A stretch of DNA of 64,000 nt, taken from the IMG/VR virus record IMGVR_UViG_3300034103_001027, positions 1-64,000 of that record, one strand, 5' to 3'. This document shows positions 2,743-20,100 of this stretch, in pieces (within the stretch, counting starts at the first letter, position 1; each line of letters starts with the position of its first letter). Origin of the DNA: a virus. Below the pieces are notes generated by a model. That model was given only the letters and a program-made list of their open reading frames with translations. It did not search any database and was not told the origin of the DNA. Made by a program: the position numbers and the translations under genes.

Positions 2743-3266
2743 ATAGGGGCAGCTCCTTTCTCGATTTCACTTGTCGGCACTCCGATAAACCTATTCCAGC
2801 ATGCAGCCAGTCTCCTGGCTTCCTCTCGACGAAAGATCGTGCCGCTACATTCTTCACGACTATCCGACAGGCATTCGCCATTAAATCCGCAGGCATGTTC
2901 ATGGTCGCGGTGGCATGAAAAAGGAACCAACGCAGTAACATCTCCAGATGCTATTCTTCGATTTGAAATCACCGCATATCGATCACATAAACAAACCCCA
3001 ACCAAATCGACTGACTCTCGAATAACGCAGAACTCAATCCTAGGCTGACCAGCTTTCATTGCGTCATAAACTACACTTGAATCCACTGGCACATCGCCTG
3101 CATGCCATTTGGATCTTTTAATCATCCCAATAGATTGAGCCCCGCGAGTCCAGCGCTTATTAGACTTAACAGTAACCCCAGATACCATGAGTTCTATAAG
3201 CATCTCACAATCGACGATGCGGCTGTTGTTGTTAGTCGCATCAACTTGCATCCGAAGCTCTTCCAT
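2715..3266 (-). CDS. hypothetical protein bounded by direct repeats
   Basis: ORF starting MEELRMQV. It ends HGRVSDAS, nearly the same as the end of the upstream gene (HGRASDAS). Contains an EEARRLAACWN motif. Confidence 0.7.
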   Translation of the reverse strand: MEELRMQVDATNNNSRIVDCEMLIELMVSGVTVKSNKRWTRGAQSIGMIKRSKWHAGDVPVDSSVVYDAMKAGQPRIEFCVIRESVDLVGVCLCDRYAVISNRRIASGDVTALVPFSCHRDHEHACGFNGECLSDSREECSGTIFRREEARRLAACWNRFIGVPTSEIEKGAAPIHGRVSDAS

Positions 3267-3268
3267 GG
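3236..3268. repeat. 33-bp direct repeat, copy 2
   Basis: TCGCATCAACTTGCATCCGAAGCTCTTCCATGG. Confidence 0.9.
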
Positions 3269-4119
3269 CAGTTCTCAACCTCCTCCAGTCTCCTCACCGA
3301 TAGATCAATCTGACTTTCGCGAATATCCACCCCAATCGACTGCCGACCATGATTCTCAGCGACAGCCATTGTCGTTCCACTGCCACAGAAGCAATCTAAG
3401 ACAATGCCTCCAGGCTTGCAGAACGAAAGAATAAATGCCGCAGCTAGAGCCTCGGGAAATGGGGCTTCGTTTTCATGCGAAAGCATGCTGCCCATACGAC
3501 CTCCACCGACCTTGCACTTAATCACATTCCCTGGATTGGCAATTTTAGGTGGGTTATATCCTTGCTGCCGCTTACCATCGGCATCTGCTTTCGTGTGTAA
3601 CTTATGTACTCGACGACCATTAGCCATGCGATGCGAAGGCTCTCCACCAGGAGCCCATTTAGGAGGCTTCCCAGTGGCTGTATTGTCACTCCAAGGCAAC
3701 TTCCCTTTACTGGAGCACACAACAAACTCGTAGTCATTTCGCCACCAATCAGGACCACCACTTCCTGGGATGCCGATACGATTAAATACTGGCGGCTTGC
3801 GAAGTCGGACACCAGCGCGATGCAGATCCGCCATGAGCAGTGCCGGTGTTGCAGACCACCGAAACTTCCTGGTCTGACCCTCAACGACCCACGCGACCAA
3901 GCCCTTGCATATTCTGTCGCACTCCATGTATCTTTCCACAGCCCAATCAACCCAATCCTGCCCGCGCAAGTTAAACCCAACGCCATAGGTTCGCGCTGCC
4001 TCATACGGAGGCGAGCACAAGACTAGGTCCACTGAATTGTCTGGCATGCTACGCATGAAATCCAGGCAATCTGCACGCACAAGCAGTGTCTTAGTTTCAG
4101 ATGCTTCAATAGCCACCAT
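3241..4119 (-). CDS. N4-cytosine/N6-adenine DNA methyltransferase (beta class)
   Basis: Catalytic motif DLVLCSPPY near the N-terminus and SAM-binding motif VLDCFCGSGTT near the C-terminus, with APFP between them. Confidence 0.9.
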   Translation of the reverse strand: MVAIEASETKTLLVRADCLDFMRSMPDNSVDLVLCSPPYEAARTYGVGFNLRGQDWVDWAVERYMECDRICKGLVAWVVEGQTRKFRWSATPALLMADLHRAGVRLRKPPVFNRIGIPGSGGPDWWRNDYEFVVCSSKGKLPWSDNTATGKPPKWAPGGEPSHRMANGRRVHKLHTKADADGKRQQGYNPPKIANPGNVIKCKVGGGRMGSMLSHENEAPFPEALAAAFILSFCKPGGIVLDCFCGSGTTMAVAENHGRQSIGVDIRESQIDLSVRRLEEVENCHGRASDAS

Positions 4120-4125
4120 CGCATC

Positions 4126-5289
4126 TCACTTACTTGGAGTGGGCCTGTAGACGCATCTTGCAATCTCTAAATCCTCTACGTGATACACGATGGCCTGCAT
4201 CCCACGACGCGATAGCCACCCACCATGCGCCGAATAGCTATCCCTGGCAGCAAGAGTCGGATGACACTCAATCGTGGCTGTAGGCGTCTCTATGATGGAT
4301 TGTGTATGCAGGTGCCCCGTATGAATCGAGGTGTGCGTCGTCCCGGCCATGAGGTGCCTGAATTGCCCACACACAAGATCAGCCAGTTCCTTGCCACGCT
4401 TCTTGTGTCCGTGCGTGAATGTCAAAAGATTCTTCCCATGCACGTTCGCATAGTAAGGAAGTGGACTCTGCACCACCTCAGCGCGAGGCTCGTTCTCATA
4501 TAAAACGCCAAAAGCTGATTGCATCCATAGCGCAGAGACCATATCGTGATTACCCTGAGCATTAACTAGGACCACCCTGTCGTGATAACTAAGGAGAGAC
4601 TGCATGGTCCTCCGAATGACCCTAATCGCCGTTCGAATCACTCGGTGCTGTCGACTGTCTTGGTCTAGCACATGATGATTCGTTGGCGTAACGGGCCAGA
4701 TCGAGTCAGAGTGCAGGAGGTCTCCGAGGTTCAGCAAGATCGCAGTACTGGCCTCAGGAGTGTTAGTCACGAGATAATCGAAGGCACTGTCAATCGTCGC
4801 TTCAGCAATCTTCAGGTCCCAATTGTTTCCACCCTCTTCGTGGTGGGCATACATGCCCAGGTGCGCGTCAGTGAGGACATAGAGATTCAATAGATCCTTG
4901 TCGCATCGCACCTGAAGCTCCCTATTAGGCTCCTCTGGTGTCACAAGCTGCGACATCTCCTCGACCATCGCTCTTGCTGCTTCAAGCGTCTGCTGCTGAT
5001 CTTGACGTGTCTTGACCCATCTTGCCTTAACGGCCCCAGCGTCGTCATACAGCGTAGAGACGCCATGCAGCAACTGATTCGGAGCCTGGAGGTCGTGAAG
5101 TCCAGTGTCCGGAGAGTAGCCCCTCGTTGCTGCGTAAGACTTGAGCCGAGACAGTCGCTCATTGAGGTATGATTGACTGATTCCTACAGCCTTAGCTGCC
5201 TTGCGCTGCGATCCCTCCGAGGACATTGCGCGGCACACTTTTTCATCGAGCGCACAAGAAGCGAAAGTACCAAGCTTGTCGTAATCCAT
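4126..5289 (-). CDS. calcineurin-like metallophosphoesterase with an N-terminal HTH
   Basis: Motifs TDAHLG, LGDLLH, GNHD, THGH and TGHLH. N-terminal SQRKAAKAVGISQS resembles an HTH. Confidence 0.85.
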   Translation of the reverse strand: MDYDKLGTFASCALDEKVCRAMSSEGSQRKAAKAVGISQSYLNERLSRLKSYAATRGYSPDTGLHDLQAPNQLLHGVSTLYDDAGAVKARWVKTRQDQQQTLEAARAMVEEMSQLVTPEEPNRELQVRCDKDLLNLYVLTDAHLGMYAHHEEGGNNWDLKIAEATIDSAFDYLVTNTPEASTAILLNLGDLLHSDSIWPVTPTNHHVLDQDSRQHRVIRTAIRVIRRTMQSLLSYHDRVVLVNAQGNHDMVSALWMQSAFGVLYENEPRAEVVQSPLPYYANVHGKNLLTFTHGHKKRGKELADLVCGQFRHLMAGTTHTSIHTGHLHTQSIIETPTATIECHPTLAARDSYSAHGGWLSRRGMQAIVYHVEDLEIARCVYRPTPSK

Positions 5290-5304
5290 GACATGAGGCT
5301 CCTA

Positions 5305-6750
5305 TTAACGTAAACCAACAGACTCCATAAAAGCTTCTATGAACGTCGCGGCAACTTGCGGGACGATAGCATTTCCCAGTCCACGCAACTGAGCCACTCG
5401 TCCGGGTATCCCATGAGCCAACGGGTGAAGTCCGGGTTTAGTTGGCCTACATTTCTCGTCTCGGCAGTAGAGGTACTCGACATCATTCCAGTAGCCATCT
5501 CCGCTGCCTTCGCCAGTGTCGGGTTGCCACCCTGGTAAGTCGTGCTCTGATCTGGCCGTTGTGATTTCGGAGTCGGCCAACCGGCTATCTTTGCAGCATC
5601 CACCAACGTCGTTCCTGCATGGTGCCTGCTCTCTGGATTGGACCGACTTGCTGTTGCGTTGCAAGCGCCTTTCGCATCCCCCACCGTCGCTGTAGGCCAC
5701 CCAGAAAAGCCTTTGACGGATGTGCGGCGAGCCGACGCCCGCAGCGCACAAATCGGCGGCCCCGACTGCATACCCCAATGCTTCCAAGTCAGCACGTACA
5801 GCGGTGAATGATGTTCGGAGGTCAAACGCTCTTTCAATCTGGCCTCCAAAGCCGCTTGCAGAGATGCCGACCGCGAACTTCTCTCCGCACGAATCGCAGC
5901 GGCAATCTCCAATATCTTTGACGGCCCCCAGACGTTCGCCATCACGTTTACGCAATACAGGGTCACTCTGACATTTCCAGAATCGTAACCTTTGCTGTTG
6001 TCGACCCTGTCCAACGAAGGACTGTCCCAAGTCTTGCCACCATCCAGATTGAAAGGGATACCCGTTAGTTCGCAGTGCCCACGGGAGAGCATTAACTGAA
6101 CTTCTTCCACGGAGATGTTCGATGATAAACCTTTCTTCTTCGCTCTGTACTTCGCCACGTTCAGCAAGACTTTCGCCCGCTCTGTTTTGCGGTAGTTCCT
6201 GAACTTCTCCGACTTTACCGCAGCAGGGACAGCATCCTTCCGCTTCTTCTCTTCCAATCGACAGCAGGGCTTGCATTTTGCCCTGTAGCCCTGGCGAGAT
6301 GACTTGGCCTTGTAAAATTCGCTCAATGGTTTGTCGATCCCGCATTCGCTGCACTTGCGCATCACCAGTGAGCCATTTTCTTCCCTCTGCACTGGCGACT
6401 TGCTCGCCAAAGATCGCTGGAGGTCGACACTCGTCAATGAGTCGCAAGAATTCTGGCCACAGGTGCCGTTCGTCTTTAACCCCCTTTCGCTTTCCTGCTG
6501 AGCTAAATGGCTGGCAAGGGCATGACCCTGTCCACACGGGGATATCTTTTGACCATCCGGCCATTTCGAGCGCGAGTGGCCAACCGCCAATTCCAGCGAA
6601 GAAGTGGCATTGGTCGAATCCTTTAATGTCATCGCCTTTAACATCCTTGATAGAGCGAGTGTCAATTGAGTCGAACCGCATCGGAAGGCATCCCAGCCAG
6701 TGCGCCGCCTTCTTGTCGATTTCGTTGGCGTATACCGTGAATTTACTCAT
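5305..6750 (-). CDS. C5 cytosine DNA methyltransferase, alpha polypeptide (motifs I-VIII and X) with a ~188-aa off-frame insertion
   Basis: Motif I FFAGIGG, IV GSCPCQPFS, VI FGEQV, VIII PHIRQRLF, X QLRGLGNAIVPQVA. Motif IX is absent from this frame. Confidence 0.88.
   Translation of the reverse strand: MSKFTVYANEIDKKAAHWLGCLPMRFDSIDTRSIKDVKGDDIKGFDQCHFFAGIGGWPLALEMAGWSKDIPVWTGSCPCQPFSSAGKRKGVKDERHLWPEFLRLIDECRPPAIFGEQVASAEGRKWLTGDAQVQRMRDRQTIERILQGQVISPGLQGKMQALLSIGREEAEGCCPCCGKVGEVQELPQNRAGESLAERGEVQSEEERFIIEHLRGRSSVNALPWALRTNGYPFQSGWWQDLGQSFVGQGRQQQRLRFWKCQSDPVLRKRDGERLGAVKDIGDCRCDSCGEKFAVGISASGFGGQIERAFDLRTSFTAVRADLEALGYAVGAADLCAAGVGSPHIRQRLFWVAYSDGGGCERRLQRNSKSVQSREQAPCRNDVGGCCKDSRLADSEITTARSEHDLPGWQPDTGEGSGDGYWNDVEYLYCRDEKCRPTKPGLHPLAHGIPGRVAQLRGLGNAIVPQVAATFIEAFMESVGLR
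5337..6665 (-). CDS. overlapping-frame methyltransferase beta polypeptide (motif IX) fused to an HNH-type endonuclease
   Basis: A 442-aa ORF nested in another frame of the same strand. It carries CSECG...CKPC, CELTG, SLDRVDNSKGY..GNV.....VN (HNH/EndoVII-like), WPT repeats and LNPDFTRWLMGYP (motif IX). Alternative start at ATG 6362 (MRKCSEC). Confidence 0.8.
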   Translation of the reverse strand: MTLALSRMLKAMTLKDSTNATSSLELAVGHSRSKWPDGQKISPCGQGHALASHLAQQESERGLKTNGTCGQNSCDSLTSVDLQRSLASKSPVQREENGSLVMRKCSECGIDKPLSEFYKAKSSRQGYRAKCKPCCRLEEKKRKDAVPAAVKSEKFRNYRKTERAKVLLNVAKYRAKKKGLSSNISVEEVQLMLSRGHCELTGIPFNLDGGKTWDSPSLDRVDNSKGYDSGNVRVTLYCVNVMANVWGPSKILEIAAAIRAERSSRSASLQAALEARLKERLTSEHHSPLYVLTWKHWGMQSGPPICALRASARRTSVKGFSGWPTATVGDAKGACNATASRSNPESRHHAGTTLVDAAKIAGWPTPKSQRPDQSTTYQGGNPTLAKAAEMATGMMSSTSTAETRNVGQLNPDFTRWLMGYPDEWLSCVDWEMLSSRKLPRRS

Positions 6751-6778
6751 TGCAGAATAAGTGATGGGGTTATCGAAG

Positions 6779-6794
6779 TTGCCATGTATGGCAA
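6779..6794. promoter_or_regulatory. near-palindrome TTGCCATGTATGGCAA between divergent genes
   Basis: Two inverted copies of the TTGCCAT motif in the divergent intergenic region. Confidence 0.55.
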
Positions 6795-6817
6795 GTCGTG
6801 TATCCTGATAATAAGAA

Positions 6818-6837
6818 GTTTGACACTGTCGTCAAAC
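6818..6837. promoter_or_regulatory. palindrome GTTTGAC-N6-GTCAAAC
   Basis: Related to the sites at 7174 and 8097. Confidence 0.45.
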
Positions 6838-6870
6838 GAGAGTGACCACGTTTTTAGCGAAGGATTGAAA

Positions 6871-7128
6871 ATGCCAAACAGCAACCCGAGAAAGGGCAAG
6901 GAGAAGGTCAAGATCACCTCGACCGGCAAGAAAGTCTCTTACGGCGAGAAAGGCGCTGATGTTCGACCAGGAACAGCCAAAGGTGATTCTTACTGCGCCA
7001 GAAGCGCCGGAATCAAGAAAGAGATGCTCGCCAAGGGCGGTAAGTCGGCAGAGAAAGCCAAGGACCCGAACTCGCCAAATAATCTCAGCCGTAAACGCTG
7101 GCGATGCAAAGGAGACAAGAGCGTCTAA
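6871..7128 (+). CDS. basic phage protein (DUF6321-like)
   Basis: GTAKGDSYCARS...DPNSPNNLSRKRWRC, a motif recurrent in aquatic phages. One of the few plus-strand genes. Confidence 0.7.
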   Translation: MPNSNPRKGKEKVKITSTGKKVSYGEKGADVRPGTAKGDSYCARSAGIKKEMLAKGGKSAEKAKDPNSPNNLSRKRWRCKGDKSV

Positions 7129-7173
7129 TTAGACCGCACTGCAAATCTCGTGCCAAGTACGTCTCTGTCAGAA

Positions 7174-7194
7174 ATTTTGACACGATGTCAAAAT
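7174..7194. repeat. palindrome ATTTTGACA-CGA-TGTCAAAAT
   Basis: The 19-bp core is the exact reverse complement of 8097-8115. Confidence 0.85.
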
Positions 7195-7207
7195 GAAGCC
7201 CGAAATG

Positions 7208-7435
7208 CTATTTGGCACGGGAGTTGCTAGAGCCGCCGCAACATCCTGCTCCACCGCTGCAATTGCACCAATCGCAACACTTGGCAAGCTCATTGCAGTT
7301 GCAGTCGGTGCATTGGCAGCTTGGGGAGCAATGGCACTTCTCGTCCCTGGCTGACTGAGTGTTGTACGAGACGACCGCTAGCGTGACTGACAGTGCTAGC
7401 AGGAACAATGTGGTTGTTATCTTCTTCTGGTCCAT
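7208..7435 (-). CDS. secreted or membrane-anchored metallothionein-like Cys-rich peptide
   Basis: Hydrophobic N-terminus (KKITTTLFLLALSVTLAVV), then 12 Cys arranged as CxC and CC pairs. AAGGA RBS upstream. Confidence 0.7.
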   Translation of the reverse strand: MDQKKITTTLFLLALSVTLAVVSYNTQSARDEKCHCSPSCQCTDCNCNELAKCCDWCNCSGGAGCCGGSSNSRAK

Positions 7436-8139: not shown

Positions 8140-11100
8140 TCACTCAGATGGAGTAGATGCGGCAGCCTTAAGGTTCTCTAGTTGCGCTTTCTTTTTATTC
8201 TCTCGAGACTCTTTTTTTATCTCGTTGACCATTTGCTGCAAAAGCTCCATTCTGCGCCTTTCAGCTTCACTCATGCGTTGCTTTTGCCACTCTGGTACGT
8301 AAGTGATACCCATCTCTCGGGCCCCGAGGTCTTTCATTTCCTCGTTGACTCGATTCATGATGATTCGATTCTTGGCTTCTTCGTTGACGGTGTTGACCTT
8401 GAAGCCTGTGGCGAGATTTAGGAGCTTATCCACAGCGGATTTCCGGTCATCGAATGCCTGATTGACCGAGGAGACCAGTCGAGACGTCGGTAGCTTTCCA
8501 GCCAGGACTTCGAGGCTCTGGGACCCCGCAATAGGCTCTGAGAGTCCCTTTCCGGATTGTCCTATCAGGTTATCGCGCAGGCGACCTAACTGCGGGTCCA
8601 TGTCCCTGAAGTCTCGGCCAAAGAAGGCCGAGCGCCCGAAGGCTAGTTCAGCGAATCCTTGGGCTTCTGGTCTGAGTTTCGAGAACAGCGAGGATGCTGT
8701 TCCTTGTACGTCCCCGTGCATGAAGCTCATTAGCTCAATTGGATCCTCCCACGCGAGGCCGAAACCACTGAGATAACGATCTTCACCACCGGGTCCTTGA
8801 GGCAAGGGGATGGCTACGCCTTTTCGGATATGTTCTGGGATGGCGGCTTCTCGGTCCTGGAGTCTATTGGTTCCTCGGATCACCCAAGCCTGCTTCCCGG
8901 CAGGATTTGTGATCAGGTCTCCTAAGGTGAGTTTAAGTGCCTTAGAGGTGAACGTATAGAACGGGATGAGTTGCTTCATATAACGGCGTTCAAAGTCACT
9001 TAAATTCGAGTAGTCAAACTGAATCATATTGACTCTTTTTGCCGCTTCTTCAGGCGTTACGCCTTGCTTGAGGAAGGCGATGTACGGCATGATACGGTTG
9101 GCGTTTTCGACGAACAGGCTCATCTCTTCACCGATCCGGCCAGCGACGAACGTGGTATCCTCTGTTCTTTGTAGGCCCAACTTGCGACGGCCTTCGCCAG
9201 GGGCCTTTTGGAACGAAGGGGTCAATGAGCCTTGTATACCAATGGGGTTTGCTTTGCCCTTAGCTGAGGTTGTCTTGTCGAATATGGCGGGTTTTAGGCC
9301 GTACCAGTTTTCTGCGTTACGTTTGATTGCTCCAGGGTTCTGGCTGACTAGGCTCGAGACGGTGTCGCCGATTTTCTCAGCGGCCTGCCCTTGCTTGTCG
9401 CCGGTTAGGCCAAACCGGAAGACTCCCTGTCGAACCCAGTCAGTGACCAGTTCATCCCCCTCCGGGGTGCCAATCATTTCGTCTGGAATGTTTAGGTCGT
9501 CATCCCATAGGAATCTAGGAATCTCCTTTGAAATCCCCTTAGCGACATTTCCATTGCTGATGGAGACGGCCTGCCTTAATGGCTTGATATGACCCAATAC
9601 GGGACTGTAGATCCCTCCGATTGTTGCTGTTGGGTCATAAGCGCCGTAGAACACGTTCTGCATCATGCCAGAGATGAAGTTCCTACTATGGAAGGATGGG
9701 AATGGCAGCGTAACTAAGGATTTGAATGTGTTCAGTGCAGCGCCAGAGATCTGTACTAAGGTGCTGATCTGAGGTGGCGTGGTCCATGTTCTCAGGAAGT
9801 GCGTAGCTGACTCGTGGATTTCCTTGGGAACGGAGAGCTTGATCTTGTCAGCGTAAATTTTGGATAGGTGCTTAGCTTCGATGAATTCGTCGAGAGTCTT
9901 AAAGTCCTGTGGCTTCTTCGTGTGTTTGTAAGTGTAGCCAGTGATTTTTCCGTTTGCGTCTCGGTTGACTGACAGCTTTTTGTCTTTGATTAGCTTCTTG
10001 ATCTTTTCATCGACGAACTGCTTGTATCCAGGGAAGTTATCTGTGCCGCGCAGGACGTTTAGGTAGGCGTTGTGGTTGTCTAGGGCTGTCGCCTGGAATA
10101 GGCTTGAGACTAGGTATTTTTGTTCGCCCTTGTATGTAGCTGAGCGAGTGACTAGGTCTTGGACCGTAAGTCCGACGGCATTCTTTGTGTGGTGAGATTC
10201 AGCGTAGGCCGCGAAGTCTCGCAAGAAGTTGTGACCAAACATCGGGACGCCCTCGGTGATATGGTCCTCGGGGAGCTTGGCTATCGATGTTATGAGGCGA
10301 TTGACCTTGGCTTTGCCTTTTTTAGTTAGCTTCCCGTCTTTGTAGAATCCGTGAATAGGGTCTGAAGACAGGATGTTGTGTAGTCCGTATTTTGCGATGG
10401 CGTGCTTGCGGGCTGCAGTGAGGGTTTCTTTGCTCAGTTTGTTCTTGAGAATTTCCTCCTTGTGCGCGATGCCGCTCAGCTTTGGATCCAATGACATCTC
10501 GTTAATCAGCGCGCGCCCTCCTGGTATATGCCGGTACGCCTCGTCTCGCTGCCTTTGAGAGTCCATCTTGGTGCTCATTAGAGCCTCACCATCAGTTCTA
10601 GACCTAAGATGCTTTCCAGGTTCTGTGTAGTTTCTGGGGTAGTATGGCACTTCAGTATCGAATAGTGCGGATCCGCTTAAGCCGTTCTTGCGCTGTTCAT
10701 CCAGCATTCTCGGAAAGGCGTCTTTGAGGCTTTGCAGCATTGTCTCTAGTTTATCTAGATCAATATCTGTGTCTTTGAATACCTCTGGCGATAGGTGATA
10801 TAGCTTCTCTGGTTTTGCTTCAAAGAATCTAATGATCTCGTTGTTCCGCGCGTTGATGATTGCCTTAGCTTTAGTGAGTGCTTCCTCGCGCGGGAGCTTG
10901 GCGTTGTCAATCAGGTTCGTAGCGATGGCCTTCAGGTCGAACAGTTGAGTCTCCCCGATGTACCGGCTGATTGGGTACAGCATTGCGCGAAACTCATAAA
11001 TGGATTGCTCGAATGCTTGGAATCGCAGTCTAGCTAGTTCCTGCGTGTCGTGATCGTAAGCGCCCATGACTGAGCGGTCGAATAACTGCAGGAACATCTT

Positions 11101-14100
11101 TGCTCCAGGTGTGGCGTAGAATAGATTCTCACCTGCGTCGAGAGCCTGCAGGACAGTCGTGATGATGCTGTCACCCTTAACGTGCTCGTAGATTTCATTC
11201 CAAATGGGTCGCGCCAGCTTGTGTGATATTTTGGCGGCTTGAGTTTCAGCAGCGGATCGAGTCTGATTGACAATGAACATCTTTCCGTTAGCGCCGAGAG
11301 TAGCTCTTTCGATGAGTTTATTCCATATCGCATTAAACTGCTCGAGGCCGATTCTGTTTTTATCGAAGAGTTTGGAGGCAAGATGTGCCGACGCGAGTGC
11401 CATTTCATAATCTTGGCTGTTGCTTCTGTTTAGAAGGGCACTGTTTGGGTCGTCGAGCATCTTCTTATTAAGAAGTGTATCCAGGACCAATTTCTCGTTG
11501 GTGGATAATGATCCTTGGAATTCATCGCCCAGCATGTATTCAGCTAGATTGCGTGCGCTGATTGAGTGCTCAAGTGTCTCATCTACTGCGCTCACAGATA
11601 TCATGTCAACGCCTGGGGTCTCTATTCCCTTGGCAAAATCCTTACGCGCTGCGTCTCGGATTGTTTGCATGATGGTCTCTATATGGCGGTTGCCTTTATC
11701 TGTGGCAAATTTATTTACCGTGTAGTCTGGATCTTTCTCAATCTTGTTCAGCAATTCTTGATACTCATCCCTGTCGGCTTGTTCGCTGAGGTATTTGAGG
11801 TTGTCTGGTGTATGCGATATCTTGACATTGACCATCGGCCCTTTATTGTTTTTTAAGAATCGATTCTTGATTAGCGTGTGGCCGATGTCGCGAAACTGCC
11901 CGTTCTTGTCGATGAACTCGTGGTTCTCGATCATTTTAATAACTTCAGGTTGGTCAATAAAATCACTTGCGCGACTAGCGTCATTGAATGCTGCGGATGT
12001 GGCAGCTTTTCTGACAGAGATCTGCATTCTTTTAAGTATCTCGTTCCTTGCTTGCTGGGCGAGCGACTCTAGGCTGTCCTTTGTGGCTTGGTCTATATTT
12101 TCTTCGGCAATAACCTGCCGGAACTTATTCATGCTAAGGAACAGTTCCTCTAAGGTTTTCTTATTGTCTTTTTGAGGTTCTGGGCCTATGGCTTTTTTGA
12201 TCAGCTTGTTGTATTCGTTTAAGCCATTGCTCCTGGAGTCCAGCTCTTCCTTTTGTGCGGAAGTTGGGTTCTTTCCAGTCTTCTTTTTTCTCAGTGAGAT
12301 CTTTCTTTGCAAGCTAGACAATTCTGATTCTGCTTGCGACTTTTGACTAATAAGATCTTGGGCTTGCGTGATCCTTTCGTTTAGCTCTGCGATCTCTCGC
12401 GTGTTGTCTTCTGCAGCATCACCCTTAAGCGACTTGCCTTTATCGCGCAATTGCTGCACTTGCTGCTTAAGCGCCTCAAGTCCGCGTTGCTCAGGAGTGG
12501 CATCTAGAGCCTCAAGGACCGCCTTGGCGTCTTGCAGCGACATGTCTCTGACGGCCTGTCCACCTTGATATTTGACTTCTTTTGCGGCTTCTTTTACTGT
12601 CTCTACAGGCGCTGCGGCTTTTGATATTTTAGCCTTGGCTTTTTTGCTTGTTTCTGTAGGTGACTTTAGATATCGTTTGATGATGTCGATATCAGTGTCG
12701 GTGATTGAGGCGTCTGCTTTTTTGAGTGCATCAATCGCTTCGTCGCTAAGCTCCGTCACGTCCTCAAGTTTTTGTGCTCCACGGATCGTGTCTAGGTTAT
12801 TCAGGATGATGCTGGACACCTTGTCTGCAGCGTGTTTCTTTGCCAACTTGTCAGGTCGCTTGGTTTTCATTGTTACCTGAAGCGCTTCATTGACTGCGCC
12901 AGCCAGTGACCCTAAGAAGTCCTTGTCACCTGTGATGCCAAGCTTGTTGCTTAATGTTTCAGTGATTCCGTGTACTTTGATGTACTTGTTGATGAATTGC
13001 TGGTCGAGATCCTGCAGTAGCTTGATAGCTTCTGGAATGTCTGCATCTGGAATGGATTCATTGATATTCTTGACTAAGTTAGTCATGAATTCTTGGTATT
13101 GTTCCGGAGTGCTTACGTTTGCCAGGTCAAAGCGCACCTGCTCCATATTGTCTCTTAGGTATGGCAGCTGATCTGCTTCGAATATCTCGATGCCTTCAGC
13201 TTCATCTGGGTCAAGAATCTGCTTGAGTCTCTTGGTTCTCTTGGCTGGATCTGCTGCTTGCTCTGCGACTTGTTCTGCAGTAGCCTTCTCTGCGGCAGTT
13301 TTCCTTTTGCGAAGTTCCACTGGACCGACTGGCATTTGCTTGGGGATGGCGGTAGTCGGTTCTTGGGTCTTCTTGGGTTTTCTGGTGTCTACGGATTTTG
13401 TGCCAGGTGTCTCTGTGATAACTCGCTTGCTGCTTTGGCTCCTTTGGGCCATACGGGACAGAATATTGTCTGCTGGCCTGTCGTCTATTGGATTTAGCGG
13501 CAGTTCCAACTGTCCTGGACTAGGCTTCAGCGCGGGAGGTTCTACGGGAGCGGCTGCTTCTTCGAGTGCATTGCGAGGCTTATTGCTTGTCGCGTAATCT
13601 TCGCCATCGAACAGTCCAAGCTGCCCTCTTCTCGGGGTGCCTTGAGCTGTATCTAGCAGTGTGTTTTTGTTTTGCGATAGCGGCTTTTTATTCTTGCCGA
13701 GCATCTCGTCGAATACCTGCTTCAGATCGTCATTGATCTTGGCATTTATCTCTGGGCTGACTTTAAGTGTCTTGTATACAGACCGCATCATTCTCTTGAT
13801 GACGGCAAAGACTTCCTTCAGTGCAGTTGTTGGCGCTGTGCCGTCTAGCATGTACTTTTCGAATAGCCGAGCCCACACTTCCTCAGCTTCGCGAGTCCAA
13901 TTGCCGTTTGCGTCTTTCAGTTCAGCAGACGCAATGCCACCGAGTATGTTCCTTAGTGTGTCAGCGTCTTTAAGCTGATGCCCAATGGCCTTGTCGGCCT
14001 TGGACATAAGGTCTTCGCTTAGATTCCTGCGGAATACGTGCGACAGTTCGTGAATAACAGTTGATGCATCACCTTCTCCGGTTAGTATCTTGATTGCTGC

Positions 14101-17100
14101 TTCGCCTGTTTCCTTGAATGAAACAACGCCCTTGCCCTTCTGCTCAAGTCGATCCAGTATCTTGATGTCTTTGTCGTCGAACACAACAAAGTTATAGTAG
14201 CCCTGCTTATTGCCTCCTCTTAGGAAGTTTTCTGGAACGGCATTGCCTTTGATGCCGACGCTATGGAGGTCCTTTGATGCTGCCTTCTTGGCTTGGAAGT
14301 CAGTTAGCTCGAATCCACGTGAGATAGACTCTACTATGCTTTTCGCCTTGTCTATTGGTACCCCGTGATCATTAAGGAGGAATGCTGCCGCATATGGATT
14401 CCCGTCATTAATGGCATGCTCGACGGAGTCAATGACTTCTTGCTTGGTTCTTAGCTTCAGATCGCCGCTGGCAAGATCATCTACGATTTGCTCCAAAATC
14501 TCTTCGTGTGTTTTCCCATAGTAGTATGCAGCACTTTTTTGCCCTTGCTCGCTGATGAAGTATCCCAACTTTACATTGTATTCCCCAGCCACTTTCTCTG
14601 AAGCCATCTCTTTGATATCATCCAAGCTTGGCGCTGAGTCGTATACCTTTAGGAGTGGCCCAGCTTGATCTTCGACAGCTTTCTTAACGGAGAAGTTCGA
14701 GGACTTCGAGGCGTGTTCTTGCCTCGCCTTCTGCATCAACTGCTCATAGATTTCCTGGCCTTTAAGGCCTTTGTATGGGTAGTCCTCATCTAGGATCTTT
14801 TTAGCTTCATCCAGCGAGTTTGCGTACGAGACAGGGGTGTTTTCATGCGGAATGTGGGCGTACCACTTATCTTTGACAATGCTTTCGATCCACTCTGTCG
14901 CTTCTTCTTTTGTTTGAAAATACTCATCAAAGTCGTCATCGAAGATGTTGAATATTTCTGCGTGAAATTTATCGCCACGCTTTGTTATAACTCCAGAAAG
15001 AGGATCTTCGCCAGTCCCGAACCACCACTCGTTAGGCTGTGTGCCATTAAGGTTTTCTAGTTGCTTTATTAGGTCATCTTCGCTGGAGGCTGCGTCTACG
15101 ATGACCTCTCCTTGCCTGCCTCCATTCATGACAACAGCGTACCACCCCGAGCCGTCCTTTCTGACTTCTAAGTCGCCATTTTCGATTGCCTCTCTAGATA
15201 TATATTTATCCAGCGAGTCGTCGCGCCACTCTTGATTGATCTTCCTGACGTAATGCCCATCAAATCTTTCTAGCCGCAGCTCTCTTGAGTTGTAGTGATT
15301 GTGCGGAGTTTCTTCCCACTGTGTCTCTGCTGAGATCCCTAGCTTCTTAAGCCCCTCTTGCACCTTAGGTGGCTGCTCGCTGAATGGCTTATCCCAGAAC
15401 ATAAGATCATCGTTGTCTGGTACTTCCAGCTTGTAGAGAGCGCCTTGTGTTCCTATTTGAATGTCACCATCTTTTAGGCTGTCAAGCGTCCTTAATGCTT
15501 CTCCGTAGTTGTGTTGAAATTTTGCTTCGGCGAGATCTCTTCCATACTTTTCGATTCTTCCTAAGAGTTCCCTCGCGGCCACATGTTGCTGGAGTGCCCA
15601 TAGATCCTCCGGGGTGATCATCTTTCTTCTGTCTATGGTCCTTGTTAGGTACTTGCGCTTTTTGATTTCTATCTCAATTGACTCATTGGTGAATACATTG
15701 GATAGTTTTTTTATCGCGTCCTCTACAGAAACAGCTCCTTCTCTCCAGTCGCTCTGGTTTTTAGGTACTTCGACTATTGGTTTTATTTCATCAAACACAA
15801 TGTCCATGAGTTTCACTGCATCATTCGGAATAGCCGCTATCCCTGGTGGGTGTCTTCTAGCTATCTTCTCGATGAGTTCAACTGCCTCTTTATTGTTGAC
15901 CCCCACCAATTTAAGATACTCTTTAGCGTCTACTTCGAACGCAGAGATAATTGGCTTGAGATCTAATAATGCCCTTATCTCTATAGCATCTACGCTACTT
16001 CGCTTCCTCGATAGGATATTTTCTTTGATTCGGTCGACGATTTCCGCTAGGCCGCTTTGGGATTTCTGTTTGCGAATGTCTTCTGCAACAGCCCTGATGA
16101 TATAGTGAGCTTGCGATATAGGTTTTCCTTTGTATGTATCCGGAGCACCATTACCAGCCAGAGCTTCCTTGTATCTCCTGCCCAGTCCCTCTCGCTGGGC
16201 TGAATAACCACCAAATCCATGCGCTTGACCTGCACCTTCAACACCTCTTCCTTCACCTGTGCTAACACGGCTCAAGTCAAATCGACCGAGCGGGAAGTTT
16301 TGGAGTGTCTCAGCACCTTCTGGAATAGCCTCTCCTGCTTCGAGATACCTCTCAGATCCATCTGGCATTCGAACAAGCATTTCTGGTGCGAATACGTGCG
16401 GAGTTCCGTGGTATGCTATTTGCAGTAATTCATTCACTGCACCATTTGCATCTCCAGCGATTCTAGAGGCAAAGCCAGCGGCTTCTTCCGGTGACATTGA
16501 CTCGATGGTAGTGAGTAATACTCTTTCATTGCCGCCAGCCTTAACGAATTCTCTGATCAATGGAACCATAGCATCAGCCGCATCTTTATTGACTGTCCTT
16601 TCGATGCTTTGATGCAATCGGTTCAGTTCGGTGTTATGCTTCGCGTTGTCGCTGAACTTCTTGGGTGGGTCGTTTTTTCTGGCTGTATCTAGCAGTAGAT
16701 TGCCAGTTGTTGCTTCTGGCTTCTTAGTGAACATGCCATCGAACAGGTTTTGCTTCTCATCGCTCCAATCGCGACTCAGTGGCGAGTTTTTGATTCTTTT
16801 GTATATGCCACTTATCCACTGCTTCATCTTGGCGAATATCGCCGTAAGGTCGCTTGTTGGAGCCTTGCCTGTTGCGAGGTACTTCTCGAAGTCTCGAGCA
16901 AAAGCCTCTTCTTGTTCTCTAGTCCACTTGCCGTCTTTGACTTTGTATATCTTCTCAGCTAAGTCTTGTAGGTCCTTGCGGAGTCGTCTGCGCGCAATGT
17001 GTCCTAGTTCGTGGGCAACTGTAGAGATGTTCGCGTTTTCGAATAGAAATACTTTCGCGAATGCATCAGGTTCGTTGAATCGAACTGCGCCACGGACTAG

Positions 17101-20100
17101 TTCCTTGCCTTTCGTTCCTGTTCGCTGATAGAGTTCTTGGCTTAGCTCTGGGTGTGCTATTTCCCACCCAGTAACAAACGGCGTGTCGTTATTTTTAATT
17201 AAAGTTAGTAGAGCCTTCCTTTGACTGATCGGAGTTCCTTTTATCTCTCGGTTTATCAGTCTCATTATTTTTTTATCGTCAAAGCTGCTCCATTCCTGTA
17301 TTTGAGACATTGGCCATTCTGATTTTAGCCACGCCTTGTGCGATTCGCTTCCGAAGAATATTTCTGCAGCGTCCCTAGATGATTGGCTTGCTGAGTTTGG
17401 AAGTTGCTTTTCTATGGTTCCTATCGCTTCTATGAATTCGTCTTCTTGCTTGAACCCAGCAGCAAAGTCCATTAATTCGGAAACGATTTTCATTGATCTA
17501 GGAGATCTGTCGTATCCGACTACTTTCGCTATGATATCGGAGATTCCTTCCCACATTCTTGCGATTAGATCTGCGATTCCTTGGTTTTGGAATGACGTTT
17601 TGTGGATCAGGTTGTCGGCGAATAATTGCGCAAACATTTCATCTACGCTGCTGGAGTAGTAGTCTGCGGCTGATGTTCCGTCTGGACGCTTCAGTCTTTC
17701 GTAGATATCTTTGAAGTATTTCTTTCCTTCTCCTGTCTGTGCAAATTGGGATATGATACTCCTGGATAGGTGTCTCATTTTTGAGTCCATGGAGTAATAT
17801 GCGATGTGCCCTAGTTCGTGCATTAATACAATTGCCCTTCTCTTGGACCGTGGGTTTAATTGTATCTTTTGCCCTCCGAGCATAGGTCGACCGTACTTAT
17901 CCAGTTCCATTATCGGGTACGCACTTGCCCAGCCAGCCATTTCCATGGAACTGTTTAGTTCGACTGCGGCGTTTGCGTGGAAGTGCTTGGCATCTTTGAA
18001 TGCTATTTCTAGGAAGTTTATTTCATCGCTGCTTAGGTAACCTTGTTTCTTGAGGTAGTCCAAGTGGTATCCGAACTTATCTCGGAATGCTGTTATCTGT
18101 TGTGGCGAGGCTTCTGCTTCAGATTGAAACAGGATATTCGGATTCGTGGCGTCGAACGTGCCTTTGTTTGCTGTGGCTGATTTGATTTGGGATGGCTCGA
18201 AGGCAACGATTTCGCTTTCGGCAAGTCGCTTGTTTTCTTTGCCAGCACTAGCAGCAACGCTCCTGTCGTATATCTCTCCGTCATATCCGGCATCCTCTAG
18301 TGCTCTTCGTCTTGCTACTGCGAAGTTGCGAGCGTACTCATCCACGTCTGCCTTGGCTGCCCTAGTTATCCTGTTTAATCTCTCTAGTTCTTCTAGCCCC
18401 TTACTAATAATGGATGGGTCGTTTGTTATTCCGTGTATAAATGGCTTCTTCAGGTTCAGGTAGACTGGAATAACTCCTCTCTTGTCGCCTACGCTAAACA
18501 TGGCATACTCTGAGGCTAGGTCCGAGCTTTTGGTGAAATAAGATCCAGCAGCAATGTAACCTTCGTCGTTAGCGCCAAAGGCTGCTGTATTGAATGCAGG
18601 TGTTTCACTTAGAGGCATTAAGTAGCCTCTGTATGTAGGCTGTGGCGGTATCGATGCAATCTCCTCATCTATCGCAAGCTTTAGTCTTTTAATGTCCTGG
18701 TGCTGGTCAAATAGTCGGATGTAAGCATCATGGCTTATCGCGTCACGAGAAGTCCCAGGGAAGTTCTGCCAGAACCTCATTGCTTCTTGCTTGTTATCTG
18801 CGACGTGTATTGCTCCGGCTATTCTGTCGGCAATGTATTTATTTTCGACCAACTCAGATACTTTAGCGAGGATATCTTGCTCGGCAGCTTCATCCGCTTT
18901 GTTTCTGTCTAATCGAAGTTGTTCTTTCCTCTTTTGATATGTGCTGTTCCACGCCTGATCGTCGGCTTTATATTGTTCAAGCTTACGGTTATGCGCGGCG
19001 GCCTCCTGCGTGCCTAGGTCAGAGAACCCTGTTCCATGATAAACAGCCAGTGGCTCTCCAGTATTGGGGTCCACGACCTTACTGGCATTAACTGGGTCAT
19101 TCTCCCAGTCTCCAAACCACTTTTTGAATGCTGGCGTCCTAACTTCAACCCACTGTCGGTAATTCAGGTTGGTCTTTCCGGCTGCTTTCGCTGCATTGTA
19201 GGCAGTCCTCCCGCCAATGCGTGATTCTGTGGCTGTAAACTCTGCGCTAGTAATCTCATCCTGATGTAAGATTCCTTGTAGTAAGTCGCCTTCCTCTTGG
19301 GTTTTCAGAAAATCTTCGTAGCTTGTGCTGGAGAACTCTGCACGCAGGTAGTCGTCTGGTTTTTGGTCTGCGGCATCCGCAAGAGCCCTTACGATTGCTT
19401 CGTAGTTGTCGGCTATTTCGTCTACATTTGCTTCGTTGCTGTATCGCTCCTTGATGGCCTTTCGTAGCGACTGCAGTGGTGTTTGCGTTTCAGTTGCTGC
19501 GTCCGCTGCTTTGGTGGTGTTTTTTAGCTTGGCTGATGCGATGTAATTTTGCGGGCTCTTCATCGCCTCTGCAAAACTTATATCCAGAGCCTTGCCTGTG
19601 GCTCTGCTGGAGAATGTTATATTCTCTTTGCCCAATAGGGAGCCTAGCGCCCCTAGTGCTGATTGGTTGGTGAAGTGACCAGAAATGGAGGTTGGGTTGT
19701 ATTGTGAGGACTTTTCGATGATTTCATTGAGCAGTGCCTTTCCAGATCCTTTCGGTGCATTGTCGTTTTTGCCGAATGCGTCGACGTAGATCGAGGATTC
19801 GTCTCCGGAGAACCTGAGCGTAGCTTCTGCGGATCCGGTTTCTTGTTGGACCTTTAGTCCGTATGAATCGTCGCCGTAATTGACCCACTCTCCTGCTGGC
19901 TGTGGTGTATCTTGCTTCTGTGGAATGTCCGGATTTGTCCGGATCGTGTCCGGATTAGTTGATACCGGATCTGGTATATTTTCAGACCTTGGCTTTCTGT
20001 ATTTCTCGGCGGACTTCTGGTACTCACGTTTCCAGTTATTCATCTTTGAAGGATTGCCCGCTCCACCAGTTGCCTCATCTGCGGCAGCCTTCTGCGGTTT

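Follow-up and report, generated by a model that had tools for sequence, protein, structure and literature searches.

A PacI-type HNH nuclease cassette within a phage cytosine-C5 methyltransferase gene coded in two nested frames

We analysed a cytosine-C5 methyltransferase gene of an environmental phage (Dcm family) which carries an HNH nuclease cassette inside its coding sequence. The minus strand of a 106.8-kb viral contig of IMG/VR (record IMGVR_UViG_3300034103_001027) carries this gene; the window, i.e. the whole stretch of DNA that was analysed, comprises positions 1 to 64,000 of this record, and all coordinates refer to it. An earlier sequence-only reading had described two overlapping open reading frames (ORFs) on the same strand. 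Both are present, at 6750-5305 (alpha) and 6665-5337 (beta), with the correction that they lie on the minus strand. In the window, the beta frame of the gene exhibits no internal stop, as opposed to 24 stops in the third frame. The features of the locus are as follows.

6750-5305, minus: alpha ORF, 481 amino acids plus stop, the catalytic chain of the C5 cytosine methyltransferase
6665-5337, minus: beta frame, +1 relative to alpha, 442 open codons running from a leader through the HNH domain into the beta core
6603-6583, minus: alpha motif I (FFAGIGG)
6519-6502, minus: alpha motif IV (PCQPFS, in SCPCQPFS)
6423-6364, minus: upstream copy of a once doubly coded segment, in which alpha motif VI is kept (PPAIFGEQVASAEGRKWLTG)
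6411-6397, minus: alpha motif VI (FGEQV)
6369-5806, minus: inserted cassette, 564 nt or 188 alpha codons, which uninserted homologs lack
6362-5868, minus: PacI-type HNH nuclease domain in the beta frame, with a Cys4 zinc ribbon (C4, C7, C30, C33) and the predicted catalytic set D118, Y126, N130 and N139
6362-6360, minus: in-frame ATG, the first HNH codon and a possible internal start, mostly missing from the other alleles
5864-5340, minus: beta core, 175 amino acids, consisting of LTWK and a WPTP-repeat recognition-like region followed by motif IX
5861-5793, minus: downstream copy of the once doubly coded segment, in which the beta N-terminal helix is kept (LQAALEARLKERL...SP), right before LTWK
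5727-5704, minus: alpha motif VIII (PHIRQRLF)
5441-5403, minus: beta motif IX (LNPDFTRWLMGYP)
5376-5359, minus: alpha motif X (GNAIVP)

With regard to the methyltransferase, the alpha chain matched PF00145 with 60.8 bits in a profile search (cut-off 22, E 2e-16) and phrog_363 with 7e-73 across residues 4-478. Its motifs I, IV, VI, VIII and X are invariant or nearly so in 51 homologs. Motif IX is absent from alpha and is carried by beta; all the motifs which the sequence-only reading had assigned to the two frames were found. Beta residues 160-326, numbered from the ATG at 6362, matched phrog_1008, a 'DNA methyltransferase' family, with 4e-19.

The nested arrangement is not restricted to the window. 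Approximately 80 IMG/VR loci have a +1 frame without stops over 250-370 codons, as opposed to 5-28 stops in the +2 frame. Between motif I and motif VI, beta-frame stops are absent in 63 of 65 loci, the mean chance of this being 0.22 given the alpha protein and the local codon usage. The conservation of the two chains is complementary, as alpha is poorly conserved exactly where beta encodes LTWK and the WPTP-repeat region. Nested genes have also been annotated: phage K1ind1 has a 'C-specific methylase' with an 'Mte8-like' coding sequence (CDS) nested inside it, and in Xanthomonas phage PhiXhv-18, two CDSs labelled 'DNA methyltransferase' are nested at the homologous place. A literature search on the 'Mte8' label of the nested K1ind1 ORF returned nothing useful. 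Nested alpha/beta coding is the norm for this phage Dcm family.

This layout had been likened to M.EcoHK31I, and it fits the published description of that enzyme, a heterodimeric C5 methyltransferase in which an alternative frame of the alpha gene encodes the whole beta chain, the provider of motif IX (Lee, Kam, Shaw 1995, via PMC2836561). As far as that second-hand description goes, the likeness extends to a beta chain that lies wholly within alpha and is read from the same strand in a different frame. In contrast, the recognition domain of M.EcoHK31I is said there to be in alpha, whereas the WPTP-repeat region is in beta here; compared with the M.EcoHK31I layout so described, the present beta also spans nearly the whole alpha gene and carries a nuclease.

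A complex of alpha and the beta core was predicted with a score of 0.89, the best of three controls reaching 0.00; 58 of 80 solved complexes attain the mark applied to such scores, as do 2 of 110 mismatched pairs. At least 76% of the contacts agree between runs, and the partner exhibits a predicted local distance difference test (pLDDT) value of at least 59. The predicted interface comprises the motif I, motif VIII and C-terminal regions of alpha on one side and the helix, the LTWK/WPTP region and motif IX of beta on the other, while alpha residues 129-315, which correspond to the insert, contribute nothing to it. The prediction supports binding between alpha and the beta core, with the reservation that the score may be due to likeness to solved single-chain C5 methyltransferases.

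Other members of the family exhibit further variations. At L051:2644-5200, two distinct Dcm genes of this family are found on one contig, the second starting approximately 1.4 kb downstream of the first, with its motifs in the other frame, so that this phage has two two-frame methylases. Two loci (L014:139-1608 and L062:2503-4095) carry a different alpha insertion of approximately 20 residues between motifs VI and VIII, e.g. AAGGPEDCEIGIVCGDSPLEWERATLS, across which the beta frame stays open. Protein P0004 and L034:409-2040 have approximately 23 extra alpha residues right before motif X (GNAI), a stretch which marks another tolerated insertion site.

The cassette occupies 188 alpha codons exactly between RKWL and TAVRADLE; the 564-nt insertion read from the window alone is thus found precisely at 6369-5806, and is absent from uninserted homologs. 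The zinc finger and HNH nuclease which had been proposed for its beta frame are borne out by PHROG matches down to 1.2e-26 and by the fold of the model. Beta residues 1-165, again from the ATG at 6362, matched the phage endonuclease profiles phrog_1035 (1.2e-26) and phrog_3322 (1.6e-26), as well as phrog_3118, 'HNH endonuclease' (3e-14). These PHROGs alone gave matches, the HNH-beta chain having none in Pfam or NCBIfam. A word-indexed protein search with the HNH domain returned five relatives only, whereas a full HMMER search found 71,722 among 1.84 billion representatives. As the whole HNH-beta chain was modelled poorly from six sequences (pLDDT 49.5), the HNH domain was then modelled alone with AlphaFold2 from 112 sequences, which gave a pLDDT of 96.6. 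The top PDB match of this model is PacI (3LDY, E 5.5e-5), followed by Gme HNH, Cas9 HNH domains, Hpy99I, McrA, colicin E9 and T4 endonuclease VII.

In the 112 sequences, C30, C33, C97, D118, G125, Y126, N130 and N139 are invariant and C4 and C7 are conserved; D118 is followed by R, Q or K, with no H at this position. In PacI, the metal is held through Asp and Asn, and a Tyr is the general base (PMC4081073). The Asp/Asn ligands and the Tyr base of the present domain match this pattern, the equivalence of the residues being taken from a weak HMMER alignment and from PMC4081073. Judging from the model, the insert encodes a PacI-type HNH nuclease, with a presumed nuclease activity. Like R.PacI (PDB 3LDY/3M7K), the domain exhibits an N-terminal Cys4 zinc ribbon, a beta-beta-alpha-metal core and a D-R...G-Y...N...N pattern. 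Nevertheless, the profile match to R.PacI is weak (E 0.1), with 19% identity and TM-scores of 0.37-0.42. Moreover, R.PacI is a free 142-amino-acid intertwined homodimer belonging to a restriction-modification system, whereas the domain described here is embedded in a methyltransferase subunit.

Free-standing relatives of the HNH domain (approximately 30% identity) are located between terminase subunits, beside ribonucleotide reductase genes, and beside or inside DNA polymerase genes, which are typical positions for homing endonucleases. One of them, in Escherichia phage Bas89 (L090, PQ850613.1 38246-39259), lies within a DNA polymerase I gene whose annotation joins two separate pieces; in this phage, an intron-like gap houses a member of the same nuclease family. 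Among the 149 top HNH relatives (P0011-P0159), 37 exhibit two PSLD-type HNH motifs per protein of approximately 270-370 residues, i.e. they are tandem-duplicated PacI-like nucleases.

The cassette is present at the identical site, with both frames open, in five more IMG/VR alleles (L005, L006, L007, L008, which is the same as L009, and L011). Alpha is also open through the insert in the protein records of the two closest insert-bearing relatives, P0004 and P0005. The HNH domains of the alleles are 36-70% identical, and the alpha and beta motifs are intact in all insert-bearing alleles. As these sequences are too diverged for a ratio of nonsynonymous to synonymous substitution rates, a stop-avoidance test replaced it. 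An alpha-frame stop arises when a T-ending beta codon precedes a codon starting with AA, AG or GA. Given the HNH protein and the local codon usage, 5.2-13.5 alpha-frame stops are expected per allele, but there are none in any of the six, where the homologs had been proposed as a place to look for such stops. The probability of this ranges from 1e-7 to 3e-3 across the alleles, the window having the value of 1e-7. T-ending codons occupy 0 of 207 risky positions, compared with 129 of 555 positions elsewhere (Fisher p 2e-20, six alleles). In contrast, six free-standing homologs exhibit 3-21 stops in the same frame and T-ending codons at 91 of 326 risky positions. Selection on the synonymous sites of the HNH sequence thus keeps alpha open through the insert. 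The mean identity across the insert is 45.5% in the beta frame, 28% in the alpha frame and 31% in the non-coding frame. Since alpha is no better conserved than the non-coding frame, only the openness of its insert is selected, and not its sequence, in agreement with the earlier description of this stretch as stop-free in alpha while not protein-like.

The site of insertion is itself a doubly coded segment. In insert-free genes, the same ~57 nt read PP..FGEQVAS..G..WL.G in alpha and LQSSLESRL......GS in beta. Each of the six inserted alleles has the alpha motif upstream of the HNH domain and the beta motif downstream of it. As the co-encoded motifs are now on opposite sides of the HNH domain, the segment must exist twice; the proposal that a duplication had separated alpha motif VI from the beta helix agrees with this arrangement. 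The upstream copy lacks the LQSSLESRL motif in its beta reading. Insert-free alleles have CAG GTT GCG, which encodes R-L-R in beta, whereas five of the six inserted alleles have CAA GTC, the exception being L007, in which CAG GTG is kept. Since CAA GTC reads K-S in beta, the codon choices needed by beta are gone from the upstream copy. Conversely, the alpha reading of the downstream copy is degenerate (FGGQIERAF...) and no longer constitutes motif VI.

In all six alleles, the HNH domain continues into the beta core without an intervening stop. The first HNH codon is ATG in the window and in L005, GTT in L006 and L008, ACA in L007 and CTG in L011. The idea that beta starts at the ATG at 6362 therefore failed, four of the five other alleles having GTT, ACA or CTG there. 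As L006, L007, L008 and L011 have no start codon at this position, their HNH can be made only as an internal domain of a beta chain which starts upstream. From the sequences, the beta start is probably upstream, near motif I, and the window offers two candidates, ATG 6644 and ATG 6632, the latter lying 11 nt after AAGGA. In L011 (positions 3270-3290), a TAA immediately followed by ATG ATG cuts the beta leader, within the conserved NDERHLW codons of alpha, an arrangement which suggests that beta restarts there. Because this leader is broken by the TAA, the upstream leader peptide is dispensable. HNH-beta fusions are found in at least 45 of the 149 top cluster representatives, 35 of which include an upstream leader of approximately 95 residues. 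None of the 50,697 cultured phage records contained an insert-bearing allele.

The distribution of the insert was assessed on a tree of 68 Dcm cores from which the insert had been excised, including seven insert-bearing rows. To place the insert on these seven rows, the tree requires six changes, and well-supported branches force at least five of them; the nearest relative of the window, L010, is insert-free. Monophyly of the seven rows was rejected (difference in log-likelihood 136, approximately unbiased test p 0.0047). The HNH domains of L006 and L008 are 70% identical, yet they are found on distant backbones. The scattered occurrence of insert-bearing alleles points to a homing element.

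Based on these results, the reading that we favour, with a probability of about 0.7, is that of an intronless and inteinless homing endonuclease which persists by being fused to beta while alpha is kept open. The sequence-only reading had offered this as one of two possibilities, and the selection for an open alpha frame, the stop-free fusion and the patchy distribution on the Dcm tree all agree with it. The other possibility offered there, a nuclease-methylase complex, is the less probable one. The host gene would be a nested two-frame phage cytosine-C5 methyltransferase, in which beta contributes motif IX together with the WPTP-repeat recognition-like region and alpha provides motifs I, IV, VI, VIII and X, the two chains presumably assembling as a heterodimer as in M.EcoHK31I. 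A 564-nt PacI-type HNH homing cassette would have entered the most constrained doubly coded segment, shared by alpha motif VI and the beta N-terminal helix. Read in the beta frame, the cassette would encode a nuclease that lacks a stop and is therefore joined to the beta core in an HNH-beta fusion. Read in alpha, it would form an unconstrained, stop-free loop of 188 residues, across which the translation of alpha would simply continue, both chains presumably being produced. The segment of ~57 nt would now flank the HNH sequence, the upstream copy serving alpha only and the downstream copy beta only. As both frames stay readable, the host gene survives. The likely homing target would be insert-free alleles, at the motif VI segment.

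Several observations weigh against this reading. The six cassette alleles share ancestry and are not fully independent tests, and the Dcm tree was built with a quick search. No convincing Shine-Dalgarno sequence precedes the ATG at 6362, and a start codon at this position is present in just one of the five other alleles. The degenerate duplication claimed from the window holds at the level of motifs in all six alleles, but not at the nucleotide level, where the upstream and downstream copies are identical at 30-36 of 63 positions against a mean of approximately 30 for shuffled controls, which is not significant. Because this likeness is hardly above the controls, the duplication, deduced from coding logic, would be old or fast-diverging. 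Finally, the persistence of the HNH-beta fusion could mean that the nuclease was recruited to a host function.

This last point leads to the explanation of a domesticated nuclease-methylase, which we consider unlikely. The HNH would then have ceased to be a selfish element, or would be more than one, and would serve as a working domain of beta, brought by the recognition region of beta to the sites methylated by the enzyme, and the locus would act in a restriction-modification or Type IIG-like manner against unmethylated DNA of the host or of rival phages. Such a role would fit the lack of a stop between HNH and beta core in six diverged alleles and at least 45 cluster representatives, the four of six alleles without an HNH start codon, in which the HNH is made only as part of beta, the invariant catalytic residues, and the fact that PacI, the closest solved relative, is a restriction enzyme. 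The predicted docking of the beta core on alpha is also consistent with it, insofar as the score does not reflect likeness to single-chain enzymes. However, the fusion is equally demanded by plain survival of the host gene, since a stop would truncate beta. Furthermore, the insert is patchy, polyphyletic and restricted to a small minority of the family, and the free-standing relatives resemble ordinary homing endonucleases. A related and doubtful proposal is that HNH-beta is a targeting device, in which the recognition subunit would steer the PacI-type nuclease, so that modification and restriction or homing share one specificity within a single 1.4-kb stretch coded in two frames. If this were true, the enzyme would not only protect the DNA of the phage but also give it a weapon against unmethylated DNA of its host or of rival phages, as a minimal self-immunising restriction-modification or homing hybrid. 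If the fusion is functional, it would constitute a natural nuclease guided by the recognition module of a methyltransferase.

Removal of the insert before the protein works, as a group I or group II intron or as an intein, is very improbable in our view. In its favour, introns and inteins are the usual carriers of homing endonucleases, and the DNA polymerase gene which contains the relative in phage Bas89 is annotated as two joined pieces. Here, however, no Rfam family matched at E<=1 on either strand of 4800-7300, and a ribozyme would not fit, since the 564 nt are taken up by the HNH ORF and the duplicated segment. In a spliced RNA, there would be no reason to select against stops in the alpha frame; this selection, together with the absence of Rfam matches, strongly argues against RNA splicing. 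As for an intein, the alpha-frame insert begins with TGDAQ and ends with LRTSF before TAV, is unconserved, and exhibits no intein blocks and no domain match; in addition, 188 residues are too few for both a splicing domain and an HNH domain. The absence of intron and intein features reported from the window is thus upheld. It is also highly unlikely that the locus is a decaying or neutral relic, in which the methyltransferase is already inactive and the frames are open because of a recent insertion or of base composition. The second DNA methyltransferase of the phage, encoded at 3241-4119, could make this one dispensable, but alleles with 36-70% HNH identity all keep both frames open, all alpha and beta motifs are intact, and stops are avoided with a p value of 2e-20.

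The favoured reading, a homing endonuclease fused to beta, can be compared with two types of known systems. Free-standing homing endonucleases can give rise to genes in pieces, as with mobE, which splits nrdA in phage Aeh1. The likeness lies in a homing endonuclease inside an essential or conserved gene, with no intron or intein and with survival of the host function. The host gene is, however, cut into two polypeptides in that case, whereas both host chains are continuous here.

The closest parallels are the ShiLan domain and the Pacc40 insertion, hidden out-of-frame HNH endonucleases described in DNA methylase genes of actinobacteriophages (Arsenault, Gosselin, Gogarten 2025, PMC11855218). 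In mycobacteriophage methylases, the ShiLan insertion leaves the host frame stop-free, and the HNH hidden in it begins at a GTG and ends at a TAA of its own (PMC11855218). The insertion has no intron or intein features, is apparently homing, and is predicted to encode, in the host frame, a loop that the protein tolerates (PMC11855218). The present cassette shares with it a stop-free insertion in a methylase, an HNH in the other frame, the lack of an intron or intein signature and a patchy, homing-like distribution. By description, in contrast, the ShiLan HNH is a separate protein of 195 amino acids, whereas the HNH here lacks a stop and forms a fusion with a second functional chain; a separate HNH ORF with its own start and stop, as in ShiLan, is not found, a start codon being present in two of six alleles. 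The present host gene is also itself doubly coded, so that two frames had to stay open, its doubly coded segment was duplicated and uncoupled, and the HNH is PacI-type, with a Tyr base and no His. The principle of an out-of-frame HNH that is read through was therefore already published in 2025 (PMC11855218). A literature search found no paper on the combination of a nested two-frame methylase with an HNH fused to the second subunit. What is new here is the doubly coded host gene, the stop-less fusion of the HNH to the second subunit, the split duplicated segment and the PacI-type nuclease.

These results show how far overlapping coding can extend, as a selfish nuclease gene resides in the most constrained part of a two-frame gene. 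Three coding demands are reconciled, through a local duplication that uncouples the frames, the purging of stop-forming synonymous codons, and the fusion of the nuclease to a host chain. The 2025 finding of hidden HNHs is extended from actinophage methylases to a large, mostly unannotated Dcm family of environmental phages. In such loci, standard gene callers report just one of two or three proteins. The missing T-ending codons before AA, AG or GA provide a clean statistical signature with which read-through insertions could be recognised elsewhere.

A degenerate DNA pattern built on the conserved KDIGDCRCDSCGE block had no match in viral contigs or genome contigs; in metagenome contigs, its sole match was an identical copy of the locus. 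This copy, together with its neighbours, lies on a JGI metagenome contig of 21.6 kb (L004, Ga0208361_1000185) and represents the same phage.

The methylase gene is the first after a promoter-like site and leads a DNA-metabolism module, all on the minus strand, with genes directly downstream at 1892-2941, 3241-4119 and 4126-5289. Their products comprise, in no particular order, an exonuclease, a second methyltransferase and a deoxynucleoside monophosphate (dNMP) kinase. The relevant features are as follows.

6835-6808, minus: promoter-like site TTGACG-16-TATTAT, a 10/12 consensus match only, 58 nt upstream of the alpha start
3241-4119, minus: second DNA methyltransferase of the phage (phrog_67, 1e-43)

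The exonuclease is an SbcD-like DNA repair exonuclease (phrog_704, 5e-105), and the kinase matched phrog_139. The module is adjoined by a single ORF of 4,724 codons (window 8140-22314, minus). A hairpin or palindrome with an 8-bp stem at 6837-6818 overlaps the best promoter-like site of the methylase operon; this palindrome, described in the sequence-only reading as the third copy of a 19-bp palindromic site, may be an operator.

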